64,000 nucleotides of DNA, taken from positions 189-64,188 of the forward strand of contig SHVB01000016.1 of assembly GCA_009694375.1 (NCBI GenBank), written 5' to 3'. The position numbers and the translations under genes are program-made. Shown piece by piece: positions 10,046 to 48,775 of this stretch (position 1 is its first letter; every line of letters begins with the position of its first letter). This DNA comes from Acidimicrobiia bacterium. GTDB taxonomy: Bacteria > Actinomycetota > Acidimicrobiia > Acidimicrobiales > VFJN01. Under the pieces are notes generated by a model. The model was not told the DNA's origin, made no database searches, and worked only from the letters and a program-made list of their open reading frames with translations.

Positions 10046-10444
10046 TCAGGTGTCGCCGAGCACGAAGGTCTTAGCCAGATGGTTCCAGGAGCACGACGGG
10101 CACACCTCGACCACGTAGCAGGCCACCTGGCGGCGTCCCTTGGTGAGTTTGGCTAACTCACCCTTCAGCGTGATGCAGCGTCCCGACGCCGGGAGCCCCG
10201 CCCCGAAGGCATAGGTGACCAACACAATCCTGTCCTCTTCACAGATCGGGCACTCCATGGCGGTGGGTTCGCTGGCGGACTGCGCGGCCCGCTTGAGCTC
10301 AGGATGGGCGTCGCACACCTCGTGCTTGGCGACGCGGCCTTTCTTGTACTCCGAGACGGCACCCATACGGGCCAGTCGGTAGTCGATCACGCCACCCGGT
10401 GCCTGCAGCCCGTTCCCACGGATCGATTCAGGCCGAAAGGTCAC
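10046..10444 (-). CDS. DUF5318-like Cys-rich protein (Rv0049-type, ponA-adjacent)
   Basis: 132 aa with CPICEED...CPSC cysteine pairs. It sits between ponA and PadR/ino1, as Rv0049 does in mycobacteria. Confidence 0.55.
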   Translation of the reverse strand: MTFRPESIRGNGLQAPGGVIDYRLARMGAVSEYKKGRVAKHEVCDAHPELKRAAQSASEPTAMECPICEEDRIVLVTYAFGAGLPASGRCITLKGELAKLTKGRRQVACYVVEVCPSCSWNHLAKTFVLGDT

Positions 10445-10591
10445 CCTCGGAGGCTAGGCCAGTGCATCGGGATTTACCCGGCACCCCGGGGGTGTGCCAT
10501 ACGGGGTTGACGAATCGCCGCCACTGCTAGATAGTGTTCGTTACATCGATTCGATACGTCATCCTGATGTACTGTTGATGCCTCCTCTCCT

Positions 10592-36834: not shown

Positions 36835-38760
36835 GTGGCGCAGTCCGAGGGGTCTTACGGGGCCAACAGCATGCAGGTTCTGGAGGGGCTCGATCCTGTT
36901 CGTAAACGCCCTGGCATGTACATCGGCAGCACCGGGCCCACTGGTCTTCACCATTGTGTTTGGGAGGTGGTGGACAACTCGGTGGATGAGGCCATGGCTG
37001 GCCACGCCACTCGAATCGAGATCTCCTTACTGCCCGACGGCGGCTGCCGGGTAGTGGACGATGGACGCGGGATTCCTACCGACATCAACAAGCAGCAGAA
37101 GATGAGCGGGGTGGAGATCGCCCTTACGAAACTGCACGGCGGCGGAAAGTTCGGCGGCGACGGGTACAAGGTTTCTGGTGGGCTGCACGGTGTTGGGGTG
37201 TCGGTGGTGAACGCCCTCTCCCGAAAACTCATCGTGGAGGTGGACCGCGGTGGACAGCGCTACCAAATGACCTTCGAGAACGGCGGAGTACCCAGCAGCA
37301 CACTCGAGGTGGTCGGCACCTCGCCCCGCGGCCGCACCGGCACCACCGTCACGTTCTGGCCGGACGGTTCTATTTTCGAAACCACCGAGTTTTCCGCCCG
37401 TACGATTCTCGAACGCCTCCAGATGATGGCGTTCTTGAACAAGGGCCTGGAGATCGTGTTCACCGACGAACGGCCCGAGCATGCCGCCCCGGCGGTTACC
37501 TACCGTTACGCCGGCGGCATCATCGATTTTGTCAAGCATCTCAATACCTCCAAAGAGGCACTCTTCGCCAAGGTGGGGTACTACGAGTTGGCCGAAGAAG
37601 AACAAGAAGTGGAGGTGGCGTTCCAGTGGAACACGGGGTACAACGCCGACGGCATCCACTCCTTCGCCAATGGGATCAACACGACCGAGGGTGGGTCGCA
37701 CGAGGAAGGGTTCAAAGCGGCCCTCACCACCGTGGTGAACAAGCACGCCCGAGCCAAGAACCTGCTCAAAGAGAAAGAGCCGAACCTGCTCGGCGAAGAC
37801 ATCCGCGAAGGCATCACGGCAATCCTCTCGGTGCGTCTGCGCGAGCCACAGTTCGAGGGACAAACCAAAGGCAAACTGGGGAACACCAGCGTGAAGACGC
37901 TGGTGCAGAAGGCCACCAACGACAAATTGGGTCAGTGGTTCGAAGAAAACCCCGCTGAGGCCAACAAGATGGTGAAGAAGGCCCTCGCGGGGGCCCAAGC
38001 CCGCATGGCGGCCAAAAAGGCGCGAGACGTCATCCGGTCCAAGACTCTGCTCGACGGCGCCGGAATGCCCGACAAGTTGAAAGACTGCAGTTCTAAGAAC
38101 CGCGAGGAGCGCGAACTGTTCATCGTGGAGGGCGATTCGGCGGGCGGTTCAGCCGTAAGTGCCCGAGATCCTCTACGGCAAGCGATTCTGCCTATCCGCG
38201 GCAAAATCCTCAACGTGGAACGAGCGCGCCTCGACAAGATGCTGCGCAATCTCGAGGTCCAGGCGCTCATCGCGGCCATCGGGGCCGGGGTGGGGGAGGA
38301 GTTTGACGTAGAAAAACGCCGCTACGACAAGGTTTGTATTCTCGCCGACGCCGATGTGGATGGCCTACATATCCGCACTCTGCTCCTGACCTTCTTCTAC
38401 CGCCAAATGAAGCCCCTGGTGGAACACGGACACGTATTCATCTGTCAGCCCCCGCTGTATTCCACCGAGGTCAGCAAGGCGAAGGTGTACCTGAAAGACG
38501 ACCATGCCAAGGATCTCTTCCTGCGAGACAATCCGAATCACAAGAAGGACTTCGGTCGTCTCAAAGGTTTGGGGGAGATGGACGCGGAGGAGTTGCGGGT
38601 CACCACGATGGAAGATGGTCTCCGCACGTTGCTTCGGGTCACCGCCGAACAGGCTGCCCTGGCCGACGACACCGTCTCCACCCTCATGGGCGACGTAGTG
38701 GAAGTACGCAAGGCCTTCATCGTGAATAACGCTAAGGACGCGAGGTTCCTGGACATCTGA
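36835..38760 (+). CDS. gyrB: DNA gyrase subunit B
   Basis: [33 protein letters not shown], the EGDSAGG Toprim motif and [10 protein letters not shown]. Start is GTG at 36835 or the upstream ATG at 36793. Confidence 0.95.
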
Positions 38761-41225
38761 TGTCAGATCAAACCCCCCCCACTGACGGGCCCGTGCGCGA
38801 AGCCATCGAACCGATCGAGATCCAGGAGGAGATGGAATCCTCGTTCCTCGACTATGCGATGTCGGTTATCACCACCCGCGCTCTGCCCGACGCGCGCGAC
38901 GGCCTGAAACCAGTGCACCGGCGGATTTTGTACGGGATGTACGAACTCGGGGCGCGCCCCGACCGCTCCCACATGAAGTGCGCCCGCGTTACCGGCGACG
39001 TCATGGGGAAGTACCACCCCCACGGTGAGGGATCGATCTACGACGCGCTCGTGCGTATGGCGCAGGACTTCTCGCTGCGCCACCCGCTGGTAGACGGACA
39101 CGGCAACTTCGGCAGCCCCGACTTCGGCGCGGCGGCCTCCCGCTACACCGAGTGCCGACTGGATCCCATCGCCATGCGGATGCTCGACGGCATCGACGAG
39201 AACACGGTGGACAAGTCCGATAACTACTCGGGCGACGAAACCGAACCGGATGTGCTCCCGGCGCGATTCCCCAACCTGTTGGTGAACGGGAGCCAGGGCA
39301 TCGCGGTGGGGATGGCCACCAACATTCCGCCCCACAACCTCGGCGAGGTGATCAACGCCACCATCCACCTCATCGACCACCCCGAGGCCAGCCCCGATGA
39401 CCTGATGCAGTTCGTCCAGGGACCTGATTTCCCGACCGGGGCTCTCATCATGGGCCGCCAGGGCATTCTTGATGCCTATCGCACCGGAAAAGGATCGATC
39501 CGACTGCGGGCGGTGTGCGAGATCGAGGAAGGCAGTGGACGCAGCGGCGACCAGATCGTGGTGACCGAGATGCCCTACCAGACCTCCATCTCGGTGACCG
39601 CGGCTCGCATCGCGGAGTTGGTGCAAACCCGGTCCATCGAGGGCATCAGTGATGTGAACGACGAATCCGCCCGGGGCAAAACCCGTCTCGTGATCAAGTT
39701 GAAGAAGGATGCGCCGGGCCTGGTCATCTTGAACAACCTCTACAAGCACACCCCGTTGCAGACGAACTTCTCGGTGAACACGGTGGCCCTGGTGGGGGGC
39801 ATTCCCCGCACGCTAAACCTGGTGCAGGCGCTGCAGGCCTACGTTGATCACCAGGCCGAGGTCATCCGCCGCCGCTCTGAGTTCCGCCTCAAAAAGGCCG
39901 GCGACCGGGCCCACATCGTGGAGGGCTTGCTCAAAGCCGTTGACGTGATCGACGCCATCATCGCGCTCATCCGGGCCTCGGATGATCGTGCGGAGGCGCG
40001 CGTGGGCCTCACTTCGGCTCCCTACAACTTCTCCGACGTGCAGGCAGAGCACATTCTCGAAATGAAGTTGGGTCAACTCACTCGCTTGGCGCGGGTTGAT
40101 CTCGAAACCGAGATGGCCAACCTACGGGAGGTGATCGCCGGGCTCGAAGCGATCCTCGGCGATGAAGGTGTGTTGCGCACGGTAATGAAGGATGAGCTAA
40201 CCGAGGTGCGCGACAAGTTCGCCGACGCCCGCCGCTCCAAGATCACCCTCGACCTCGGTGACGTAAACATCGAAGACCTCATCGACGACGAGGAACTGGT
40301 GGTCACCCTCTCGGCTCGTGGCTACATCAAAACGGTGCTGGCCGATGCCTTCCGCTCGCAGGGCCGGGGCGGGCGCGGCGTGGCGGGCGCGAAACTTCGC
40401 GATGAGGACTACGTGACGCAGATCCTCACCACTACCGCTCATGCGTACCTGCTGTTCTTCTCCAACTTGGGGCGTGTCTATCGCCTCAAGGCCCACGAGA
40501 TTCCGAAGAAGGAACGCACCGCTCGGGGGACGGCGATGCCCAACCTCCTGCAACTTCAGCCGGGGGAGCACATCCAAACGATCATCGACACCCGCGACTA
40601 CGAGACCAGTCGTTTCTTGTTCTTCACCACCAAGCAGGGGCAGGTGAAGAAAACAAAGTTCAATGACTACGACTCGTCGTTGCGCACCGGGATCATCGCC
40701 ATCAATCTTCGGGGGGGCGACGAACTCGTGAAGGTCATTCCTACCAACGGGAGCGACGACATCTTGATGCTCAGCAAGTTGGGCCAGGCCATCCGTTTCA
40801 CGGAAGGCGACGTGCGACCCATGGGCCGAGCCGCCGCAGGGGTGAGGGGCATGAAATTGCGCACCGGCGACGAAGTGGTGAGCCTCGACAGCTGTCGCGA
40901 CGACGTAGCCATGCTGATCGTTACCGATGCCGGTTACGGCAAACGCACCCAGTTGGAGCACTTCAACCGCCAAGGCCGCGGCGGGCAGGGAGTGCGGGGA
41001 ATCAAAATCACAGCCAAAAAGGGACACGTGGTGGCGGCCTTCATGGTGGGCCTTGACGACGAGATTTTCGTGGTGAACTCGGTGGGAACGCTCATTCGTA
41101 TGCCGGTGAGGGAGATCTCTTCTCAGGGACGCGACGCAACCGGCGTGCGGGTTATGAACCTCGACGACAACGAAACAGTGGCGTCGGTAGCCCCGGTTCT
41201 TTCCGCCGACGACGACACAAGCTGA
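38760..41225 (+). CDS. gyrA: DNA gyrase subunit A
   Basis: [19 protein letters not shown] (catalytic Tyr region) and C-terminal beta-pinwheel repeats. The start overlaps the gyrB stop. Confidence 0.95.
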
Positions 41226-42370: not shown

Positions 42371-42447
42371 GGGGCTATAGCTCAGTCGGTTAGAGCGCAT
42401 CCCTGATAAGGATGAGGTCGGAAGTTCGATTCTTCCTAGCCCCACCA
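42371..42447 (+). tRNA. tRNA-Ile (anticodon GAT), CCA encoded
   Basis: Cloverleaf read by hand. Acceptor GGGGCTA/TAGCCCC, D arm GCTC-AGTCGGTTA-GAGC, anticodon arm CATCC-CTGATAA-GGATG, T arm GGAAG-TTCGATT-CTTCC, discriminator A, then CCA. Confidence 0.95.
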
Positions 42448-42458
42448 GTCCTGACCCG
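42399..42458 (+). repeat. attL-like direct repeat (3' half of tRNA-Ile plus 11 bp)
   Basis: Positions 42399-42437 are identical to 45638-45676 (39 of 39). The match extends to 55 of 60 through 42458/45697. Confidence 0.85.
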
Positions 42459-42565
42459 CGAGTCCGTCGCCATACTGCGATGGCCGCCCCGCCCGAACCG
42501 GGCCCAGGCCGCCGTCCTCGAGTGCTGCCGTCGGGTGAGGTCTCAAGGCACCCAACTGCCTCGCC

Positions 42566-43126
42566 TCAGCTGACACGGGGGTCGTCGGCCAGAAGCAGTG
42601 CGAGGGCTTTGCGGGCGCGGTGGATGGCGACGTCGATGGCGCCTGGCTCTTTGCCGAGCTCGGCGGCGATGTCCTTGGTCGACCGGCCGGCTACGTAGCG
42701 GGCTTCGATGAGGAACCGGGCTTCGGGGGACAGGCTGTCCAGGGCTTGCTCGATCACGATCTGCAGGACGGACTGGACGCTGGGGCTCGACATGCCGAGG
42801 GGCAGCTCCTGGACCAGGCGCGCGTAGTGCTGGTCGGGCCCGAAGTCGCCGTCGGCATCTTGTCGCGGTGGAGGAAAGGTTCCCTGCCGGCCGAAGGGAA
42901 CGTCCCGGTGCAGCTTCTTGCCGATGCGGCGGGCGTCGTTGGCGGCGACCTTCCAGACCCACCCATCTCGCTTGTCCGGGTCGATGTCGTCGAGTCCCTC
43001 GATGAGCTCCATCACGGCGTGGTTGGCCGCGCCTTCGAACACCTGGTCATCGCTGGAGATGGTCTTGGCTGCCTTGAGTGCGATCTTTCGGAAGTAGACC
43101 AACTCTTCGTCGCTCAGCTCCCCCAT
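42566..43126 (-). CDS. divergent sigma-70 family (ECF-like, two-domain) sigma factor
   Basis: Region-2-like NHAVMELIEGLDDIDPDKRDGWVWKVAANDARR. Region-4 HTH LSPEARFLIEARYVAGRSTKDIAAELGKEPGAIDVAIHRARKAL. No adjacent anti-sigma gene. Confidence 0.7.
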   Translation of the reverse strand: MGELSDEELVYFRKIALKAAKTISSDDQVFEGAANHAVMELIEGLDDIDPDKRDGWVWKVAANDARRIGKKLHRDVPFGRQGTFPPPRQDADGDFGPDQHYARLVQELPLGMSSPSVQSVLQIVIEQALDSLSPEARFLIEARYVAGRSTKDIAAELGKEPGAIDVAIHRARKALALLLADDPRVS

Positions 43127-43287
43127 GCCCTCGAAGGCTACGGGTCAGGCCGGCCCGCCGCTGGCGACAGCCCGCAAGGGCCCCCGCAAGAGATTCGCGA
43201 GACCCGGTGTAAGAAATCGCCCCTCGGATGACTCCTCTTCATTGAAGGGCACTTGACCCGAGCGCCCCATCGAAAGGAGTCACGAAC

Positions 43288-43881
43288 GTGACCATCAAGC
43301 CCAACCTCGACTTCGTCACCGATCGCATCGCCACCGGCGGCGACCTACCCCATCGCCGGGAGGACGCCGCCGCGGCCCTTCGGGTCTGGCAGGACCTCGG
43401 GATCACCCACGTGATCGATAATCGGCAGGAGTGGACCGACGAGGACCTCGTGGCCCACCTCGCCCCCGAGATGAGGTACCTCTGCAACGGGGTCGCTGAC
43501 GCCGGCAACGGCCAACCGGACCATTGGTTCGACGACGGTGTCGCCTGGGCCCGGGAGGCGTTGAGCGATCCCGACGCCAAGGTGCTCATCCACTGTCACA
43601 TGGGCATCAACCGGGGGCCGTCGTTGGCCTACGCCGTCTTGCTCGATCAGGGCGTCGACCCGGTGGACGCGGTCGACGCCATCCGTACCGCCCGCCCCAT
43701 CGCCGGAGTGTCCTACGCCGAGGACGCCCTCGGTTGGTTCCACCGCCGCCACGACGTCGACCCCGCCCGCCGGTCCGAGGACCGTCGCCGGCTCGCCCAG
43801 TGGCGCCACGAGAACCATATCGACGTCGTTCGCATCATCCGCAGCATCCGCCAGGACGAAGCGGCCGCCCGGGTCGCCTGA
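43288..43881 (+). CDS. dual-specificity / Tyr-phosphatase-like protein (CX5R)
   Basis: Active-site loop VLIHCHMGINRGPS (HCX5R[S/T]). GAAAGGAG ribosome-binding site 8 nt upstream of the GTG at 43288. Confidence 0.7.
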   Translation: MTIKPNLDFVTDRIATGGDLPHRREDAAAALRVWQDLGITHVIDNRQEWTDEDLVAHLAPEMRYLCNGVADAGNGQPDHWFDDGVAWAREALSDPDAKVLIHCHMGINRGPSLAYAVLLDQGVDPVDAVDAIRTARPIAGVSYAEDALGWFHRRHDVDPARRSEDRRRLAQWRHENHIDVVRIIRSIRQDEAAARVA

Positions 43882-43927
43882 CCCGCCACCTATCCGTACC
43901 AACACCCACCCAACCAGGAGATCCCCA

Positions 43928-44035
43928 ATGAGAAGCGTCACCGTCGAGCTCAACGACAACGAGTTCGCCCAGTACGTCACGGACCAGTGGCACTGGAAGC
44001 AGGACTTCACCGATTCCACCGAAGTCTACCGATGA
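43928..44035 (+). CDS. 35-codon micro-ORF (MRSVTVELNDNEFAQYVTDQWHWKQDFTDSTEVYR)
   Basis: AGGAGA ribosome-binding site 6 nt upstream of the ATG. Its stop overlaps the ATG of the next ORF (cgATGAgg at 44032-44035). It falls below the 60-aa cutoff of the supplied ORF track. Confidence 0.4.
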   Translation: MRSVTVELNDNEFAQYVTDQWHWKQDFTDSTEVYR

Positions 44036-45492
44036 GGCCCCGACCCTCGACCCCGAAAGGAACAACCGTGAACGCAGCCAAACCGCCCGTCTGGGACATG
44101 ATCGAGACGCTTACGAGGAGCCGTCTCGTCGTACCGCCCCTCGGATCCACCGACCCCGGCCAGGTCGACGCCTTCGGCCAGTGGCACTGGGGCACCCGCG
44201 ATCTCAACGCCCTGGACGAGCTGTACCTGTTCGACGTCGAGGCGGTCGCCCGGAACATCATCGACCACGGTCCCCTTTTCTCGCTCTCCTACGCCGGCCA
44301 CGGGATCAACAGCTACGCCCTCAGCCTCGTGACCACCGCGCCCACGGGCGATGTCGCCTTTTTCACCCAGGGCGGCCTCGGGGGCGGGTACTCCGACGAG
44401 GACAAGGACATCGCCAGGATCAACGACGCCTACCAACGAATTGCCCGGGAGTCGGCAGAGCTCGACGGCGGCACTCGCACCGACCGGGTCCGCTGGCTGG
44501 TGTTCTCGTCCTTCATGCGCGACGAAACAGGAATCATCGACCTCGATGGGCTCCGAGAGGGGGCGGGGGTCGACTCGGCCCTCGAGTGGATCGACGACAG
44601 CGTCCTCTTCGATGAGCTCAAGGCCCGTCGAGCCGCCGCTGATCCGTCCGCACCCCCGGTGGCCGGGATCGTCCCCCACCTTGCGGAGGTCCTGCGGCGG
44701 CTGAAAGACGACTCGCACCTCGTGATCAACGTTCTTGGATCGGTCCGCTACGTGCAGTTCGCCACCTTCCGACCCAACCTGCGTCTGGAGACCATCGGCA
44801 TCCGCTACCTCGAGCGGGACAACGACGCCATGACCGTCGACCACCTGGTGTGGCTCGCCTACCAGGGGTGGCACGACGCCGATGACGGCGGGAACCTGTG
44901 GCGGGAATGGATTCCGGCCGACGAGGACGAAGCCGCCGCCGCCGCCGTGGAGGTCCTCGTCAAGGTCCACGGCGTCACTGATATCGACCAGATCTGGTTC
45001 CATTCCGAAGACGACGATGCCCTCGCCGCGCTCGACCACTTCTCGCCGCCGAGGCCGGTACCACCGGGGGGCCTGCAACCGACCAACCGATTCCGGGCGG
45101 CAGTGATCAATGCTGCCTTGGGAGGAGAGCCGCTACGGCTGCTTTCCGGGTCCAAGGTCGTCGCGGTGGTCGACTACATCGCTCGTGACGCGGTGCTGGT
45201 GATGCTGGCTCTCGTGGACGGCGAGGTCCTCCGCCGCCACGACGGCCGCTGGCGTGACGACCCCGACTGGGACAAGGTCCTCCCGAAGGCACCGGCCCGG
45301 TCGATCGTCCCGCTCACCCAGGAGCAGTTCGACAAGGTCCGCGTCCAGATTGACCGATCGTCGGCAGGGAAGCCCTGGAAGCCGTTCAAGGCCCCGGACC
45401 TCGAGCGGTATTGGCCCAGTTACTGTCCCAACGACCCGGATCTGTTCGACTGGAGCCAGCTCGACTCCATCGCCGAGCTCCACGAGCGGTGA
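44032..45492 (+). CDS. large orphan protein of unknown function (about 486 aa)
   Basis: Long ORF with coding-like composition. Candidate starts are ATG 43987, ATG 44032 (coupled to the micro-ORF) and GTG 44068 (GAAAGGA ribosome-binding site). I recognise no catalytic motif. The acidic central segment is vaguely YbjN/chaperone-like. Confidence 0.6.
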   Translation: MRPRPSTPKGTTVNAAKPPVWDMIETLTRSRLVVPPLGSTDPGQVDAFGQWHWGTRDLNALDELYLFDVEAVARNIIDHGPLFSLSYAGHGINSYALSLVTTAPTGDVAFFTQGGLGGGYSDEDKDIARINDAYQRIARESAELDGGTRTDRVRWLVFSSFMRDETGIIDLDGLREGAGVDSALEWIDDSVLFDELKARRAAADPSAPPVAGIVPHLAEVLRRLKDDSHLVINVLGSVRYVQFATFRPNLRLETIGIRYLERDNDAMTVDHLVWLAYQGWHDADDGGNLWREWIPADEDEAAAAAVEVLVKVHGVTDIDQIWFHSEDDDALAALDHFSPPRPVPPGGLQPTNRFRAAVINAALGGEPLRLLSGSKVVAVVDYIARDAVLVMLALVDGEVLRRHDGRWRDDPDWDKVLPKAPARSIVPLTQEQFDKVRVQIDRSSAGKPWKPFKAPDLERYWPSYCPNDPDLFDWSQLDSIAELHER

Positions 45493-45637
45493 GGCGGGCT
45501 GAGGGGATGGGGACTGGCGACGACATCGGGCGGGGCGGCTACCCGGCGAAGTGGCAAACAGCGGTTTCTGGCGGTCACCCCCCGTCGCGAAAGACCAGGT
45601 CAGTGGGGATGGCGGTCAATGGCGCGCACCCCCATCG

Positions 45638-45697
45638 ATCCCTGATAAGGATGAGGTCGGAAGTTCGATTCTTCCTCGCCCCACTATCCCTGACCTG
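45638..45697 (+). repeat. attR-like direct repeat (displaced copy of the tRNA-Ile 3' half)
   Basis: See 42399-42458. This copy has no tRNA 5' half upstream of it and carries an acceptor-stem change (TCGCCCC versus TAGCCCC). Confidence 0.85.
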
Positions 45698-45824
45698 TAA
45701 GTTTGCCGTCGCCGGAAGTACCATTCGGCCAAATGACAGTCGTGGGGCGGGATTGGTAGGGTTCGTTGGGGCTAATCGTGCTGCGTTCCCGGTTTTACGC
45801 TGGCGCTTGTCGGGGGGGGGTGTG

Positions 45825-48536
45825 ATGTACGTGGGCACAGTGCGAGCAAGTAAGCGGTGGGCGCTCATAACGGTGCTTCTCGTGGCGGTGGGGCTCGCGG
45901 CGTCGCCACCGTCAGCGTCGGCGCACACCCCGCACGACGACATCTTCGATGTCGCCGTATCACCGGAGTTCAGCTCCGACGACACGCTCCTCGCCATCTC
46001 GCGTGGGCTGTTCATGCGATCCACGGACGCGGGGGTGACCTGGCAGCGCCTCGTAAAGGGGCTCAATAACCTAGCGCAACCTCAAGGGGTGGCCTTCGGC
46101 GGCGGGGTGAGCAGCCGAGCGTGGGCCTTGAGCCGGGACGGCGTCTTTCGCTCGGACGACGGGGGAGTCGCCTGGACACGAGTGATGACCCCGGTTGCCA
46201 ATGACCTCCAAGTGGTGGGTACGACGAGCGCCTCTCGGGATGTTGCCGTCGTCGCGGGCCCGGCCGCTGGTGCGTACATCACCCGCGATGGAGGGGTGTC
46301 GTGGGGGCCACTGGGGAGTTTCGGGGCCGCCGTCACCGCGGTGGCCTTCAAGAAGGCCAGTAGCCAGGTGGTGTTCGCGGGGGACGCCAACGGTGTCCTG
46401 CACATCTCGGGCACTGGCGGGGCGGCCTGGTTCAACTACCCACTGGCGGGGGCCGGAGCGATCACGTCGATCGCGGTGTCTCCGTCCTTCTCGACCGACG
46501 GCCTCGCGTTGATCGGCACCAATACTGGCGGCGTCCTCCGGTGGAACAATTTCACCAAGACGGCCACTTCGGTCAACAGCGGCCTCACGGACCCGCGGGT
46601 GACCTCCGTGACGTACTCCGCCGATTACGCCTGGGACTCCACGGTGTTCGCGTCGACCTGGACCGGCGGGTTGTTCGTCTCGGGTGACCGGGGGAGCACC
46701 TGGAGCGCGTCGAACAGCGGTCTGGTGTGGGATCCCCAACCGACCCAGATTGCCTTCCAGGACCGTCCGAACTTCGGCCGGGTGGTGAGCGCGCTGACGG
46801 ACCAGGTCACCCGGACTCAGACCGTTTTCCTGGCTGCCTTCGTGGGGCTGTACGCCTCTGACAACCGGGGGGCATCCTGGGCCGAGAGCGAGACCCTCAC
46901 CTCGAGCATCCTCGTGGGCCTATCGCTCTCCCCGCAGTACGGCACGAACCGGAAGGTGGCCATCTCCACCTACTCGAACGGCGCCTTCACCTCGGCCGAC
47001 GCGGGCGCAACCTGGTCGGAGAGCAACCTGGGGCTGGCCCAACGGGGCTTCTGGGATGCCGAGCCGGATGGGTACGCTCGGTTGTACAACATCGCCTACG
47101 CGCCCCCGGTGGCCGGGCGGTCCTGGTTGTACTCCTCGGTGGCCACCCACGGCGGGAGTCCCGGCGGCGTGCTGCGCTCGAGTGACGGCGGCGCCTCATG
47201 GTCGCGCACGTCCGTGCCGGGGTTCAGCAGCCCTGACTTCGATACCCACATCCCCTTCGTGCTGCCATCGCCGAACTTCGCCAACGATCGTTCCGTCCTG
47301 ATGGTCGATGGTGGCAATGGCTTCGTCAACCGCTCCGTGGACGAGGGCGCTTCGTTCCAGCGGGTCGGCACGATCCCGTTCCAGCCGCGGTGCCTCCAGG
47401 CCTCGCCCAACTTCGCCGCCGACCAGCGCCTGTTGGTCTGCACCAGTCGCGGTGTCTACGTGAGCACCGACCTCGGTGCGACGTGGTCCCCGACGGCGAG
47501 CTTGAACATGACGGGGCTTGCGGTGGTCGTGAGAAGCGGCGTCAGCGAGACCTGGCTCGCCGCCACCACGACCGGGCTGTTTCGGAGTACCAACCGAGGG
47601 GTGTCGTGGACGCGAGCGTCGCTGCCGTCGTCGGTCCCGGCCACGGCTGAGGTCGTGTCGGTGGCCAGCTCGCCCCCGTCCAGCGGGCCCGGCACCGTTC
47701 TCGTCAGCATCCGTGGGCGAGGTCTGCTCCGCTCCACCGACGGAGGCGCCACCTTCGGTGCCCTACTGACCGCGCTCCTGGATGCCAACGAGCAGCTCGA
47801 CAACTCCAACGCCAAGCCCACGGCGTCGGCGATCGCCTTCTCCCCGGTCTTCGAGGCCGACCGGACCGTGTTCGGCTACTCCAACGATCACCTGTTCCGT
47901 TCCACCGACGGGGGGGCCACGTGGGTGCGGGTGGTCTTCCCACGCGCCACGCACACGGGCCCCTTTCCCGTGGCCCCCTCCGCCCCGGTGATGGGAACCG
48001 CCACCAGCAGCAGTGGGTCCGCATCGGTCACCTTCACCCCATCCGGCGCCGGAGGGGCCCCCGCGGTTCGCTTCGACAGCACCTGCACCTCGACCAACGG
48101 AGGAGTCACGGGCGGCGGGTCGGGCCCATCGAGCCCAGTGATGGCAAGCGGCTTGACCAACGGCAAGACCTACACGTGTCGAGTGACGGCGACGAACGCG
48201 GGAGGCACCAGTGCCCCGTCAGGATCGTCCAACGCCGTCGTACCGATCGCCGTACCATCGGCCCCGCTGTCGGTGACGGCCGTGGCTGGGCCGGGACAGG
48301 CAACGGTCTCCTGGACGGTGCCGTCGTCGGACGGGGGCTCTCCCATCACCGGATACACGGTGACCCCCTACGTCGGGTATTTCGTCCTGCCTTCGACGAC
48401 ATTCGGTCCGGCGAGCACGAGCCAGACGCTCACGGGCCTCACGAACGGAACCTCCTATCGGTTCAGCGTGATCGCGATCAACGGCGCTGGAGCGAGCGCA
48501 CGGTCCACGCTGTCGAACCTCGTTGTTCCCGCCTGA
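45825..48536 (+). CDS. secreted Asp-box (BNR) repeat beta-propeller protein with two C-terminal fibronectin type III domains
   Basis: Signal peptide MYVGTVRASKRWALITVLLVAVGLAASPPSASA. About 13 S-x-D-x-G-x-T/S-W repeats (STDAGVTWQRL, SDDGGVAWTRV, SSDGGASWSRT, STDGGATWVRV and others). FN3-like segments PSAP...YTCRVTATNAGG and PSAP...SYRFSVIAINGAG. Confidence 0.8.
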   Translation: MYVGTVRASKRWALITVLLVAVGLAASPPSASAHTPHDDIFDVAVSPEFSSDDTLLAISRGLFMRSTDAGVTWQRLVKGLNNLAQPQGVAFGGGVSSRAWALSRDGVFRSDDGGVAWTRVMTPVANDLQVVGTTSASRDVAVVAGPAAGAYITRDGGVSWGPLGSFGAAVTAVAFKKASSQVVFAGDANGVLHISGTGGAAWFNYPLAGAGAITSIAVSPSFSTDGLALIGTNTGGVLRWNNFTKTATSVNSGLTDPRVTSVTYSADYAWDSTVFASTWTGGLFVSGDRGSTWSASNSGLVWDPQPTQIAFQDRPNFGRVVSALTDQVTRTQTVFLAAFVGLYASDNRGASWAESETLTSSILVGLSLSPQYGTNRKVAISTYSNGAFTSADAGATWSESNLGLAQRGFWDAEPDGYARLYNIAYAPPVAGRSWLYSSVATHGGSPGGVLRSSDGGASWSRTSVPGFSSPDFDTHIPFVLPSPNFANDRSVLMVDGGNGFVNRSVDEGASFQRVGTIPFQPRCLQASPNFAADQRLLVCTSRGVYVSTDLGATWSPTASLNMTGLAVVVRSGVSETWLAATTTGLFRSTNRGVSWTRASLPSSVPATAEVVSVASSPPSSGPGTVLVSIRGRGLLRSTDGGATFGALLTALLDANEQLDNSNAKPTASAIAFSPVFEADRTVFGYSNDHLFRSTDGGATWVRVVFPRATHTGPFPVAPSAPVMGTATSSSGSASVTFTPSGAGGAPAVRFDSTCTSTNGGVTGGGSGPSSPVMASGLTNGKTYTCRVTATNAGGTSAPSGSSNAVVPIAVPSAPLSVTAVAGPGQATVSWTVPSSDGGSPITGYTVTPYVGYFVLPSTTFGPASTSQTLTGLTNGTSYRFSVIAINGAGASARSTLSNLVVPA

Positions 48537-48637: not shown

Positions 48638-48775
48638 ATGGCCTTGTTTCGCCGTGCGGTTGTTGCAGTGGGGGTGGCCAGCATCGTCGCGACGGTCCTT
48701 CGTCTCCGAGGGAGCGGTGGAACCCCTCCCCAATACGGGGGCTGGCGTGAACTGTCGGGCCCGGATCTCGAATGA
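48638..48775 (+). CDS. 45-codon small ORF (MALFRRAVVAVGVASIVATVLRLRGSGGTPPQYGGWRELSGPDLE)
   Basis: GAAGGAGAA ribosome-binding site 7 nt upstream. One hydrophobic helix. The stop overlaps the ATG of the next gene (aATGAgg at 48772-48775). Confidence 0.4.
   Translation: MALFRRAVVAVGVASIVATVLRLRGSGGTPPQYGGWRELSGPDLE

Follow-up and report, generated by a model that had tools for sequence, protein, structure and literature searches.

TY-Chap3 is a domain that Iyer, Burroughs, Anantharaman and Aravind defined (Viruses 2022; PMC9503650); in that paper it occurs beside phosphatases of the rhodanese-phosphatase superfamily, and a peptide-binding chaperone role was predicted for it in systems that centre on an ADP-ribosylglycohydrolase (ARG) and were proposed to reverse phage ADP-ribosylation. 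This was the only paper naming TY-Chap3 in the literature searched, and the family has been characterised only computationally (PMC9503650). Here, we describe a TY-Chap3 gene in a 64,000-nucleotide stretch of DNA from an Acidimicrobiia bacterium (contig SHVB01000016.1; hereafter the window, to which positions refer unless another locus is named). The gene forms a trio with the genes of a Cys-based phosphatase and a sigma factor of the extracytoplasmic function (ECF) type on a small islet in a tRNA-Ile gene, and a 35-codon open reading frame (the micro-ORF) precedes it. The most probable explanation, in our judgement, is that this is a TY-Chap3 gene in a conserved trio forming a conflict or regulatory module on the islet, and that the micro-ORF is the remnant of an internal deletion.

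Compared with the described TY-Chap3 proteins, the central domain of the large protein scores above the Pfam cut-off, and its predicted fold is like stand-alone TY-Chap3 models and weakly like the chaperones of type III secretion systems (T3SS). A Cys-based phosphatase is coupled to the gene, as in the published neighbourhoods, and the occurrences are mostly actinobacterial. In particular, a tightly coupled phosphatase of the rhodanese-phosphatase superfamily belongs to the ARG-centric systems, and here a CX5R phosphatase of the DSPc type is encoded directly upstream in every locus. Conversely, the domain is here flanked by two modular domains without a Pfam model, the regulator is an ECF sigma factor, and genes for an ARG, a Nudix or a WYL protein are lacking from the islet. 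We view the locus as an ARG-less variant, linked to a sigma factor, of the predicted phosphatase/TY-chaperone conflict modules, with the probable, decaying remnant of a small gene of phages and defence islands. It reveals a compact, recurrent three-gene module, consisting of an ECF sigma factor, a Cys phosphatase and a three-domain TY-Chap3 protein, that moves among actinobacterial genomes amid defence genes.

A three-domain TY-Chap3 protein

The large gene consists of the following parts.

44055..44070, + strand: conserved Shine-Dalgarno (SD) site (44055-44063) and true GTG start (44068) of the large gene, from alignments and the NCBI-sourced 474-aa cluster P0003
44068..44643, + strand: N-terminal domain, aa 1-192, with W.WG, GHG.NSY and Q..GG motifs; modular, without a Pfam model
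44647..45057, + strand: TY-Chap3 domain, aa 194-330, Pfam PF22552
45085..45492, + strand: C-terminal domain, aa 340-474, with an RRHDG.W motif; modular, without a Pfam model

A word-index protein search found 15 relatives of the large protein, and the 11 full-length ones were aligned. The N-termini of all 11 align at the residue encoded by GTG 44068, and the 12-residue extension implied by a start at ATG 44032 is absent from every one of them. In addition, the GAAAGGAAC site before GTG 44068 is invariant in five loci, namely the window and four relatives whose spacers have otherwise diverged. Because all homologues align there and an invariant SD site precedes it, these results indicate that the large gene starts at GTG 44068 and encodes 474 aa rather than about 486, the length that an earlier note on this DNA had derived by starting at the ATG of the ATGA overlap. 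The stop codon of the micro-ORF lies 32 nt upstream of this GTG, and ATG 44032 lies 36 nt upstream.

The same note had described the large protein as an orphan without recognisable motifs. However, Pfam TY-Chap3 (PF22552) matches residues 204-306 of the 474 with 49.3 bits against a cut-off of 27 (E = 9.9e-13; profile positions 9-114 of 117), and an exhaustive phmmer search of 1.84 billion representatives returned 255 relatives at E <= 0.001. The central domain belongs to TY-Chap3, a family described as having a circularly permuted T3SS-chaperone/YbjN fold, and the likeness of the middle third to YbjN and secretion chaperones, which the note had suspected, is borne out by the Pfam match and by the structural matches in the ESM Atlas and among T3SS chaperones. 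For the middle domain, the comparison with a stand-alone TY-Chap3 cluster in the Atlas gave a template modelling score (TM) of 0.78 by target, and ExsC, Spa15, SycN-YscB, SicP, SycT, InvB and DR_1245 matched weakly (VIA-align, Z 3.6-4.2). T3SS chaperones and YbjN proteins (ExsC, SycN/YscB, SicP and Spa15; DR_1245) have an alpha/beta fold of a sheet plus helices that binds extended peptides, and this domain appears to share it; they differ in that Z reaches only 3.6-4.2, that the locus has no secretion system and an actinobacterial host, and that the TY-Chap3 topology is circularly permuted according to PMC9503650.

The phmmer relatives split into three modules that occur independently (aa 4-190, aa 193-330 and aa 345-450). 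The N-terminal module, to which most of the 150 best among the 255 matches belong, also occurs alone or C-terminally in proteins of about 320 aa; the TY-Chap3 module also stands alone at about 145 aa; and the C-terminal module is also found in proteins of about 350 aa without Pfam annotation. No Pfam model matched the N-terminal or C-terminal domain, NCBIfam had no match for the large protein, and a sequence search of the PDB gave no relative of the whole protein or of either of these two domains. Profile-profile comparison showed both to be unrelated to the TY-Chap3 domain, and feature searches of the ESM Atlas with either returned nothing. The contigs that encode the stand-alone N-terminal and C-terminal domain proteins were too short to show gene context.

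The predicted local distance difference test (pLDDT) of the AlphaFold2 model was 89.5 for the whole protein and 95.6 for the N-terminal domain, and Foldseek against the PDB found nothing at E <= 0.001 with the whole model or with the N-terminal domain. The large protein thus has two confidently folded domains without a Pfam model or a clear relative of solved structure, and the N-terminal domain, which is widespread and modular, is a candidate new domain family. An assignment of this domain to the anticodon-binding fold of class II aminoacyl-tRNA synthetases was considered and rejected, the best VIA-align Z of 4.2 being too weak.

The large-protein family is rare (2 of 61 related genomes), and no relative was found among the viruses of IMG/VR or the plasmids of PLSDB. 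Relatives of about 850 aa (P0007 and P0008; L018, 7001-9565) carry a second unit of N-terminal domain plus TY-Chap3-like domain after the first three domains, a tandem duplication.

The mobile trio and its tRNA-Ile islet

The other two members of the trio and the borders of the islet are as follows.

42566..43126, - strand: sigma-70 family protein of ECF type, 186 aa, divergent from the phosphatase operon; Pfam Sigma70_r4_2 (E = 4e-13) and TIGR02937
43288..43881, + strand: Cys-X5-Arg phosphatase of dual-specificity type, 197 aa, with an HCHMGINRG P-loop; Pfam DSPc (E = 6.6e-8)
42371..42447, + strand: tRNA-Ile(GAT), the integration target of the islet; ARAGORN and Rfam tRNA (76.9 bits)
42399..42463: left att-like direct repeat, the 3' 49 nt of tRNA-Ile plus 16 nt; repeat search
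45638..45702: right att-like repeat, the native 3' end of tRNA-Ile, displaced; repeat search and a sub-threshold Rfam tRNA match (21.9 bits)

The sigma factor scores 49.5 bits against TIGR02937 (cut-off 42.9) over residues 13-176, region 4 being clear in Pfam and region 2 divergent, and the DSPc score of the phosphatase falls just below the Pfam gathering threshold. As in the known ECF sigma/anti-sigma modules, a Group IV sigma factor with regions 2 and 4 is present, whereas no islet protein matches an anti-sigma family in Pfam or NCBIfam.

In each of the eight related loci, the TY-Chap3 gene is immediately preceded by the phosphatase gene. The gene of an ECF-type sigma factor is divergent from the phosphatase gene in L003, L004, L016, L017 and L019, and is nearby in L018; in the window, the divergent region between the two measures 161 bp (43127-43287). 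The ratios of non-synonymous to synonymous change (pN/pS) for the three established genes of the islet against L003 are 0.27-0.60, with 0.27 for the phosphatase, indicating purifying selection. The trio is a conserved mobile module, in which a divergent ECF-type sigma gene is followed by phosphatase and TY-Chap3 genes that are read together.

The genes around the related loci vary, have a mobile or defensive look and include the TrbL, NlpC/P60 and DUF8175 conjugation genes, SLFN_AlbA_2, helicases and a methylase with Vsr, as well as Macro, ARPP-1, REase-ARP, NUDIX-WHD_NrtR, dynamin-like GTPases and an AcrVA2-like gene. In L004 the trio lies within a conjugative element. In L017 it stands beside Macro, ARPP-1, REase-ARP and a NUDIX-WHD_NrtR regulator, and this is the only locus with NUDIX-WHD_NrtR nearby. 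The conflict context proposed in the earlier note is thus seen for the wider family, which sits among conflict genes in the related loci. Pfam revealed no ARG among the islet proteins, and the genes listed for the eight related loci do not include one either.

The window has a GC content of 65%. Upstream of the islet, the dnaA/dnaN region is followed by gyrB, gyrA (38760-41225), a gene for a DUF3566 membrane protein and tRNA-Ile(GAT). The islet, of about 3.2 kb, lies in the 3' half of the tRNA gene, and its sole cargo is the trio, plus the micro-ORF. The two att-like repeats, spaced by 3239 nt, are 65 nt long and 89% identical, the first 39 nt being identical. Because the right repeat and about 11 nt past the tRNA end match the sequence 3' of the intact tRNA-Ile in islet-less genomes of the genus (95% over 60 nt), the right repeat is the displaced native tRNA end. 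These results agree with the earlier description of a tRNA-bounded islet with a sigma factor and a phosphatase, the latter two as shown by Sigma70_r4_2/TIGR02937 and the CX5R P-loop.

Like other genomic islands integrated in tRNA genes, the islet is bordered on both sides by copies of the tRNA 3' end in direct repeat, and in the genus this tRNA-Ile site has also taken up other insertions. It differs from such islands in its size of only 3.2 kb and in having no integrase or excisionase; no integrase or other recombinase was found among its three genes and the micro-ORF in Pfam and NCBIfam. The islet is either a remnant or else a passenger that is mobilised in trans. Searches with Pfam, NCBIfam and PADLOC revealed no domain of a nuclease or another effector in it, and no PADLOC model matches any of its proteins. 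The 3' 49 nt of tRNA-Ile(GAT) are duplicated in several genomes of the genus (G002, G020 and G026); the distance between the copies is about 9.1 kb in G002 and 86 nt in G020. This end of the tRNA gene is therefore a recurrent integration site with differing cargo.

Origin of the 35-codon frame

The elements between the phosphatase and TY-Chap3 genes are as follows.

43891..44039, + strand: polymorphic 149-nt segment containing the entire micro-ORF; insert-less alleles carry the 10-nt CGATCTGTAA instead
43916..43921, + strand: AGGAGA ribosome-binding site of the micro-ORF, 6 nt before its ATG, read directly
43928..44035, + strand: the 35-codon micro-ORF, a probable remnant with an MRSV start and the last ~31 codons of a ~115-aa family
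44032..44035, + strand: ATGA overlap of TGA 44033-44035 with ATG 44032, the ATG being in frame with the large gene that ends at 45492

The ATG at 43928, the AGGAGA 6 nt upstream, the 35-codon frame with its peptide and the ATGA can all be read in the sequence as the earlier note had given them. ORFs of at least 30 aa overlapping 14 kb of this 65% GC DNA number 150, so that a length of 35 codons alone is not beyond chance. The GC content of the micro-ORF by codon position, 0.50/0.33/0.86, is like that of the neighbouring genes; because of this gene-like pattern and its homology to a protein family, the micro-ORF is judged to be coding-derived sequence. In the spacer, no Rfam family and no sigma-70-type promoter consensus were found, the folding z-score was -0.42, and the 186-nt spacer has no second copy in the genome. 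A feature search of the ESM Atlas with the 35-aa peptide returned nothing, and a word-index search with its 41-aa in-frame extension retrieved only a 91% identical variant.

The parent family was recognised from residues 5-35 of the micro-ORF, which match positions 89-119 of the 126 of phrog_34511 (E = 9.6e-6). By BLASTP, 16 of 30 residues are identical to the C-terminal end of AAY80_032, a hypothetical protein (116 aa) from Stenotrophomonas phage DLP_6, and the identity to members from high-GC metagenomes reaches 62%. Pattern scans gave members in two IMG/VR loci, eight metagenome loci, a Nocardioidaceae metagenome-assembled genome, an Endozoicomonas genome and one more actinobacterial genome. 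To our knowledge, no function is known for this family. Its full-length members, of about 115 aa, share the blocks MRTV(R/K)I.K, NR..H, PEDHT.DY and EMSV..V.EL, followed by ..F..YV.D.W.WKQ.F..T..Y.R and the stop codon.

The micro-ORF shares with these proteins the C-terminal motif, the stop position and, apparently, the SD site and first codons, and it keeps all six family-invariant columns and the C-terminal L..EF..YV.D.W.WK motif. It differs in matching only their C-terminal part, the alignment showing that about 80 central residues, including the NR..H and PEDHT.DY blocks, are missing. The high-GC members L050, L051 and L053 end nearly as the micro-ORF does (WHWKQ.F..T..Y.R-stop, in a CGA-TGA/TAA context), the ending CGATGA itself being found in L050 and L053. 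They begin with an AGGAG-type site, 5-7 nt and ATG-AGA-ACC-GT (MRTV), and the micro-ORF begins with AGGAGA, 6 nt and ATG-AGA-AGC-GT (MRSV). MAFFT splits the micro-ORF between the first two residues of the family and its last 33.

These comparisons suggest that the micro-ORF arose from a ~115-aa phrog_34511-like gene by an in-frame internal deletion of about 80 codons, which would have left its own ribosome-binding site, the first four codons, the last ~31 codons with the most conserved motif, and the CGA-TGA stop. The ATGA would then be the parent family's own stop context, in frame with the downstream gene by chance and, being inherited, not created for coupling. Equally possible, the segment was acquired recently as an already shortened cassette, which is in line with its lack in both the closest and the distant relatives.

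In the window, the spacer from the phosphatase stop to the conserved start is 186 nt long. It is 47 nt long in both closest loci, L002 (from the sister species G017, 98% aa identity) and L003 (85%), and 40-78 nt long in the six more distant loci (L004, L006 and L016-L019), leaving no room for the micro-ORF. The micro-ORF is accordingly absent from all eight, and searches of 30 genomes of the genus and 400 of the class did not find the peptide. The insert-bearing form was seen in a freshwater contig of DNA run X4, identical to 43807-44445, and in L021 and L022, two near-identical contigs that carry the segment with the 91% identical 35-aa variant (P0166). A 465-nt contig from a metatranscriptome library of freshwater sediment (X18), which spans window positions 43750-44353, joins 43890 to 44040 via CGATCTGTAA, so both alleles are present in freshwater metagenomes. 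The X18 contig bridges the phosphatase and TY-Chap3 genes in the insert-less form, which is compatible with co-transcription, DNA carry-over being possible; with the reservation that RNA libraries may contain DNA, it hints that the operon is expressed in nature. The micro-ORF is not a conserved component of the locus, and the segment is confined to a narrow strain group. Terminal repeats or a target duplication around the 149-nt segment were sought and rejected, since its C-rich flanks are only about 50% alike by eye, which we judged to be the chance level.

Across the ~560 nt aligned with L022, the 108-nt ORF has four substitutions, three of them non-synonymous (V4G, Q15P and Y34C) and one synonymous; elsewhere there is one spacer indel, one substitution in 240 nt of the large gene and none in 130 nt of the phosphatase gene. 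Over both L021 and L022, the micro-ORF shows three non-synonymous and 0-1 synonymous changes, with one change in ~370 flanking coding nt. Y34C hits a residue that is Tyr in all 11 full-length family members aligned, and Q15P puts a Pro in the motif helix. The micro-ORF thus appears to be under weak constraint, the counts being tiny (3-4 changes).

The earlier note had taken the micro-ORF and the large gene for a translationally coupled pair, to be checked by the conservation of the frame and of the ATGA junction and by the balance of synonymous and non-synonymous change. Neither the frame nor its start is preserved in the homologous loci, the overlap is with a non-conserved ATG, and three of the 3-4 substitutions are non-synonymous in the only other alleles that carry the micro-ORF, so the pair was not upheld. 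The likeness to translationally coupled small ORFs lies in the 4-nt overlap of stop and start, in frame with the gene downstream; the differences are that the overlapped ATG is not the conserved start, that the arrangement is absent from the orthologous loci, and that the CGA-TGA comes from the parent family. The apparent coupled acidic micro-peptide is better explained by strain-level gene decay, which calls for caution in reading ATGA overlaps in GC-rich DNA where comparative data are lacking.

For the wider family, a full-length member in L050 (GC 0.67) is immediately preceded by the gene of a DSPc phosphatase that is 52% identical to that of the window (187 aa, E = 2e-57), the member taking the position that the remnant has in the window. 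In L058, a member adjoins a NERD-UvrD helicase and a TY-Chap1 protein, and in the genome G756 a member adjoins GmrSD and a trypsin-like peptidase. In two phage contigs, a member of ~90-116 aa directly follows a peptide deformylase (L020, 1252-1602, which is phage DLP_6, and L045, 645-917). The member in L045 has no central PEDHT.DY block; therefore, natural shortening of the family happened more than once. From this small sample, the ~115-aa family appears to move in the space of phages and defence islands and to have met genes of phosphatases and TY-chaperones on more than one occasion. To judge from the literature searched, a small family common to phages and defence islands is here linked to phosphatase/chaperone modules for the first time.

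At L050 1157-2372, the DSPc phosphatase gene and the full-length member are followed by a gene that opens at the member's ATGA, and the contig ends after 80 codons of it. The gene downstream of the member in L053 was tried as a phosphatase and rejected (BLASTP E = 29).

Proposed function and competing explanations

In the explanation that we prefer, the TY-Chap3 protein would serve the phosphatase as an adaptor or sensor that binds proteins or peptides, and the transcriptional output would come from the sigma factor. The trio would then be a module of conflict (phage/mobile-element) or of regulation, akin to the systems of phosphatase and chaperone that Iyer et al. 2022 predicted, and the ~115-aa family may be a fourth, optional component or modulator, nearly lost from this lineage. 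Several observations weigh against this explanation. The islet has no ARG gene, so the published mechanism is not directly transferable; PADLOC has no model for the trio, whose function is predicted only; and the RNA evidence is limited to contigs from RNA libraries, possibly DNA. The internal-deletion model depends on just four N-terminal codons and the SD site, no allele with a full-length ~115-aa gene was found at this exact site, and the lack of the segment in both the closest and the distant relatives makes the recent gain of a shortened cassette equally possible. In addition, the frame, the SD site, the start and all the invariant motif residues are intact in three independent contigs, so that a functional mini-protein is conceivable.

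As a tentative alternative, which we regard as possible, the trio is chiefly a sigma-control switch, in which the TY-Chap3 protein would be the missing anti-sigma factor or co-regulator and the phosphatase would reset a phosphorylation-dependent step; it would then regulate genes of the element or host and would not be an immune effector. No recognisable anti-sigma gene lies near the ECF-type sigma gene, whose head-to-head arrangement with the operon of phosphatase and TY-Chap3 genes is conserved in at least six loci, and domains of nucleases or other effectors are lacking from the islet. Some T3SS chaperones, ExsC for example, control transcription by partner switching, and ExsC also turned up as a structural match of the middle domain. 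However, the islet has no kinase, and the defence-like, variable neighbours (SLFN_AlbA_2, Macro, ARPP-1, REase-ARP, the helicases and the methylase/Vsr) fit a conflict system equally well.

It is unlikely that the micro-ORF is a working mini-protein, translated from its strong SD site, with termination-reinitiation at the ATGA giving a TY-Chap3 isoform that is 12 residues longer, and with the peptide perhaps a ligand or regulator of the chaperone domain. The retention of all six family-invariant residues, the host-like GC content at third codon positions, and the fact that SD site, start codon, reading frame and stop codon are intact in the window, in L021 and L022 and in run X4 would fit such a role, as would the ATGA in frame with the downstream gene and the full-length member of L050, which likewise ends in an ATGA that opens the next frame. 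TY-chaperones are, moreover, predicted to bind peptides (PMC9503650). Conversely, the ORF is absent from the closest orthologous loci, from all the distant ones and from the genus and class genomes searched, and the conserved start and SD site of the large gene lie 36 nt further downstream. No homologue has the 12-residue extension, and the predominantly non-synonymous substitutions bring a Pro into the motif helix and remove a conserved Tyr. A complex prediction for the peptide with the large protein, folded without alignments, gave a score of 0.00; it is uninformative and was not used.

The notion that the locus is itself an ARG-centric system of Iyer et al. 2022 against phage ADP-ribosylation, with the phosphatase processing phosphates derived from ADP-ribose and the TY-Chap3 protein binding modified host proteins, seems to us rather improbable. 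TY-Chap3 and phosphatases of the rhodanese-phosphatase superfamily are named as components in PMC9503650, and the neighbourhood of the trio in L017, with Macro, ARPP-1, REase-ARP and NUDIX-WHD_NrtR, accords with this. However, an ARG occurs in neither the islet nor the eight related loci listed, and the regulator is a sigma factor and not a Nudix or WYL repressor; the paper makes no mention of sigma factors.

A bolder version, to which we give a slim chance, is that the ~115-aa phrog_34511-like proteins are natural ligands, that is, triggers or inhibitors, of phosphatase/TY-chaperone modules; the chaperone would bind the L..EF..YV.D.W.WK motif, and the 35-aa remnant would be a minimised, still active tuner of the trio in some freshwater strains. 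Finally, a chance open frame in a non-coding spacer, which the abundance of short ORFs in this GC-rich DNA (150 with 30 aa or more in 14 kb) might suggest, has next to no probability, being contradicted by the family homology, the gene-typical codon-position GC and the canonical SD site.

Two further frames were noted. A listed TTG frame of 1041 aa (45411-48536), encoding a BNR/sortilin-FN3 protein, extends back across the att repeat into the last part of the TY-Chap3 gene; the true start of the frame must be downstream of 45702, and 887 aa are called in L003. Another small ORF with an ATGA overlap, of 45 codons (48638-48775), precedes the gene of a 325-aa Rossmann protein. In L003, the contig with 85% aa identity, a gene is called at the corresponding position (10428-10565), so that this 45-codon ORF is conserved there, unlike the 35-codon micro-ORF.

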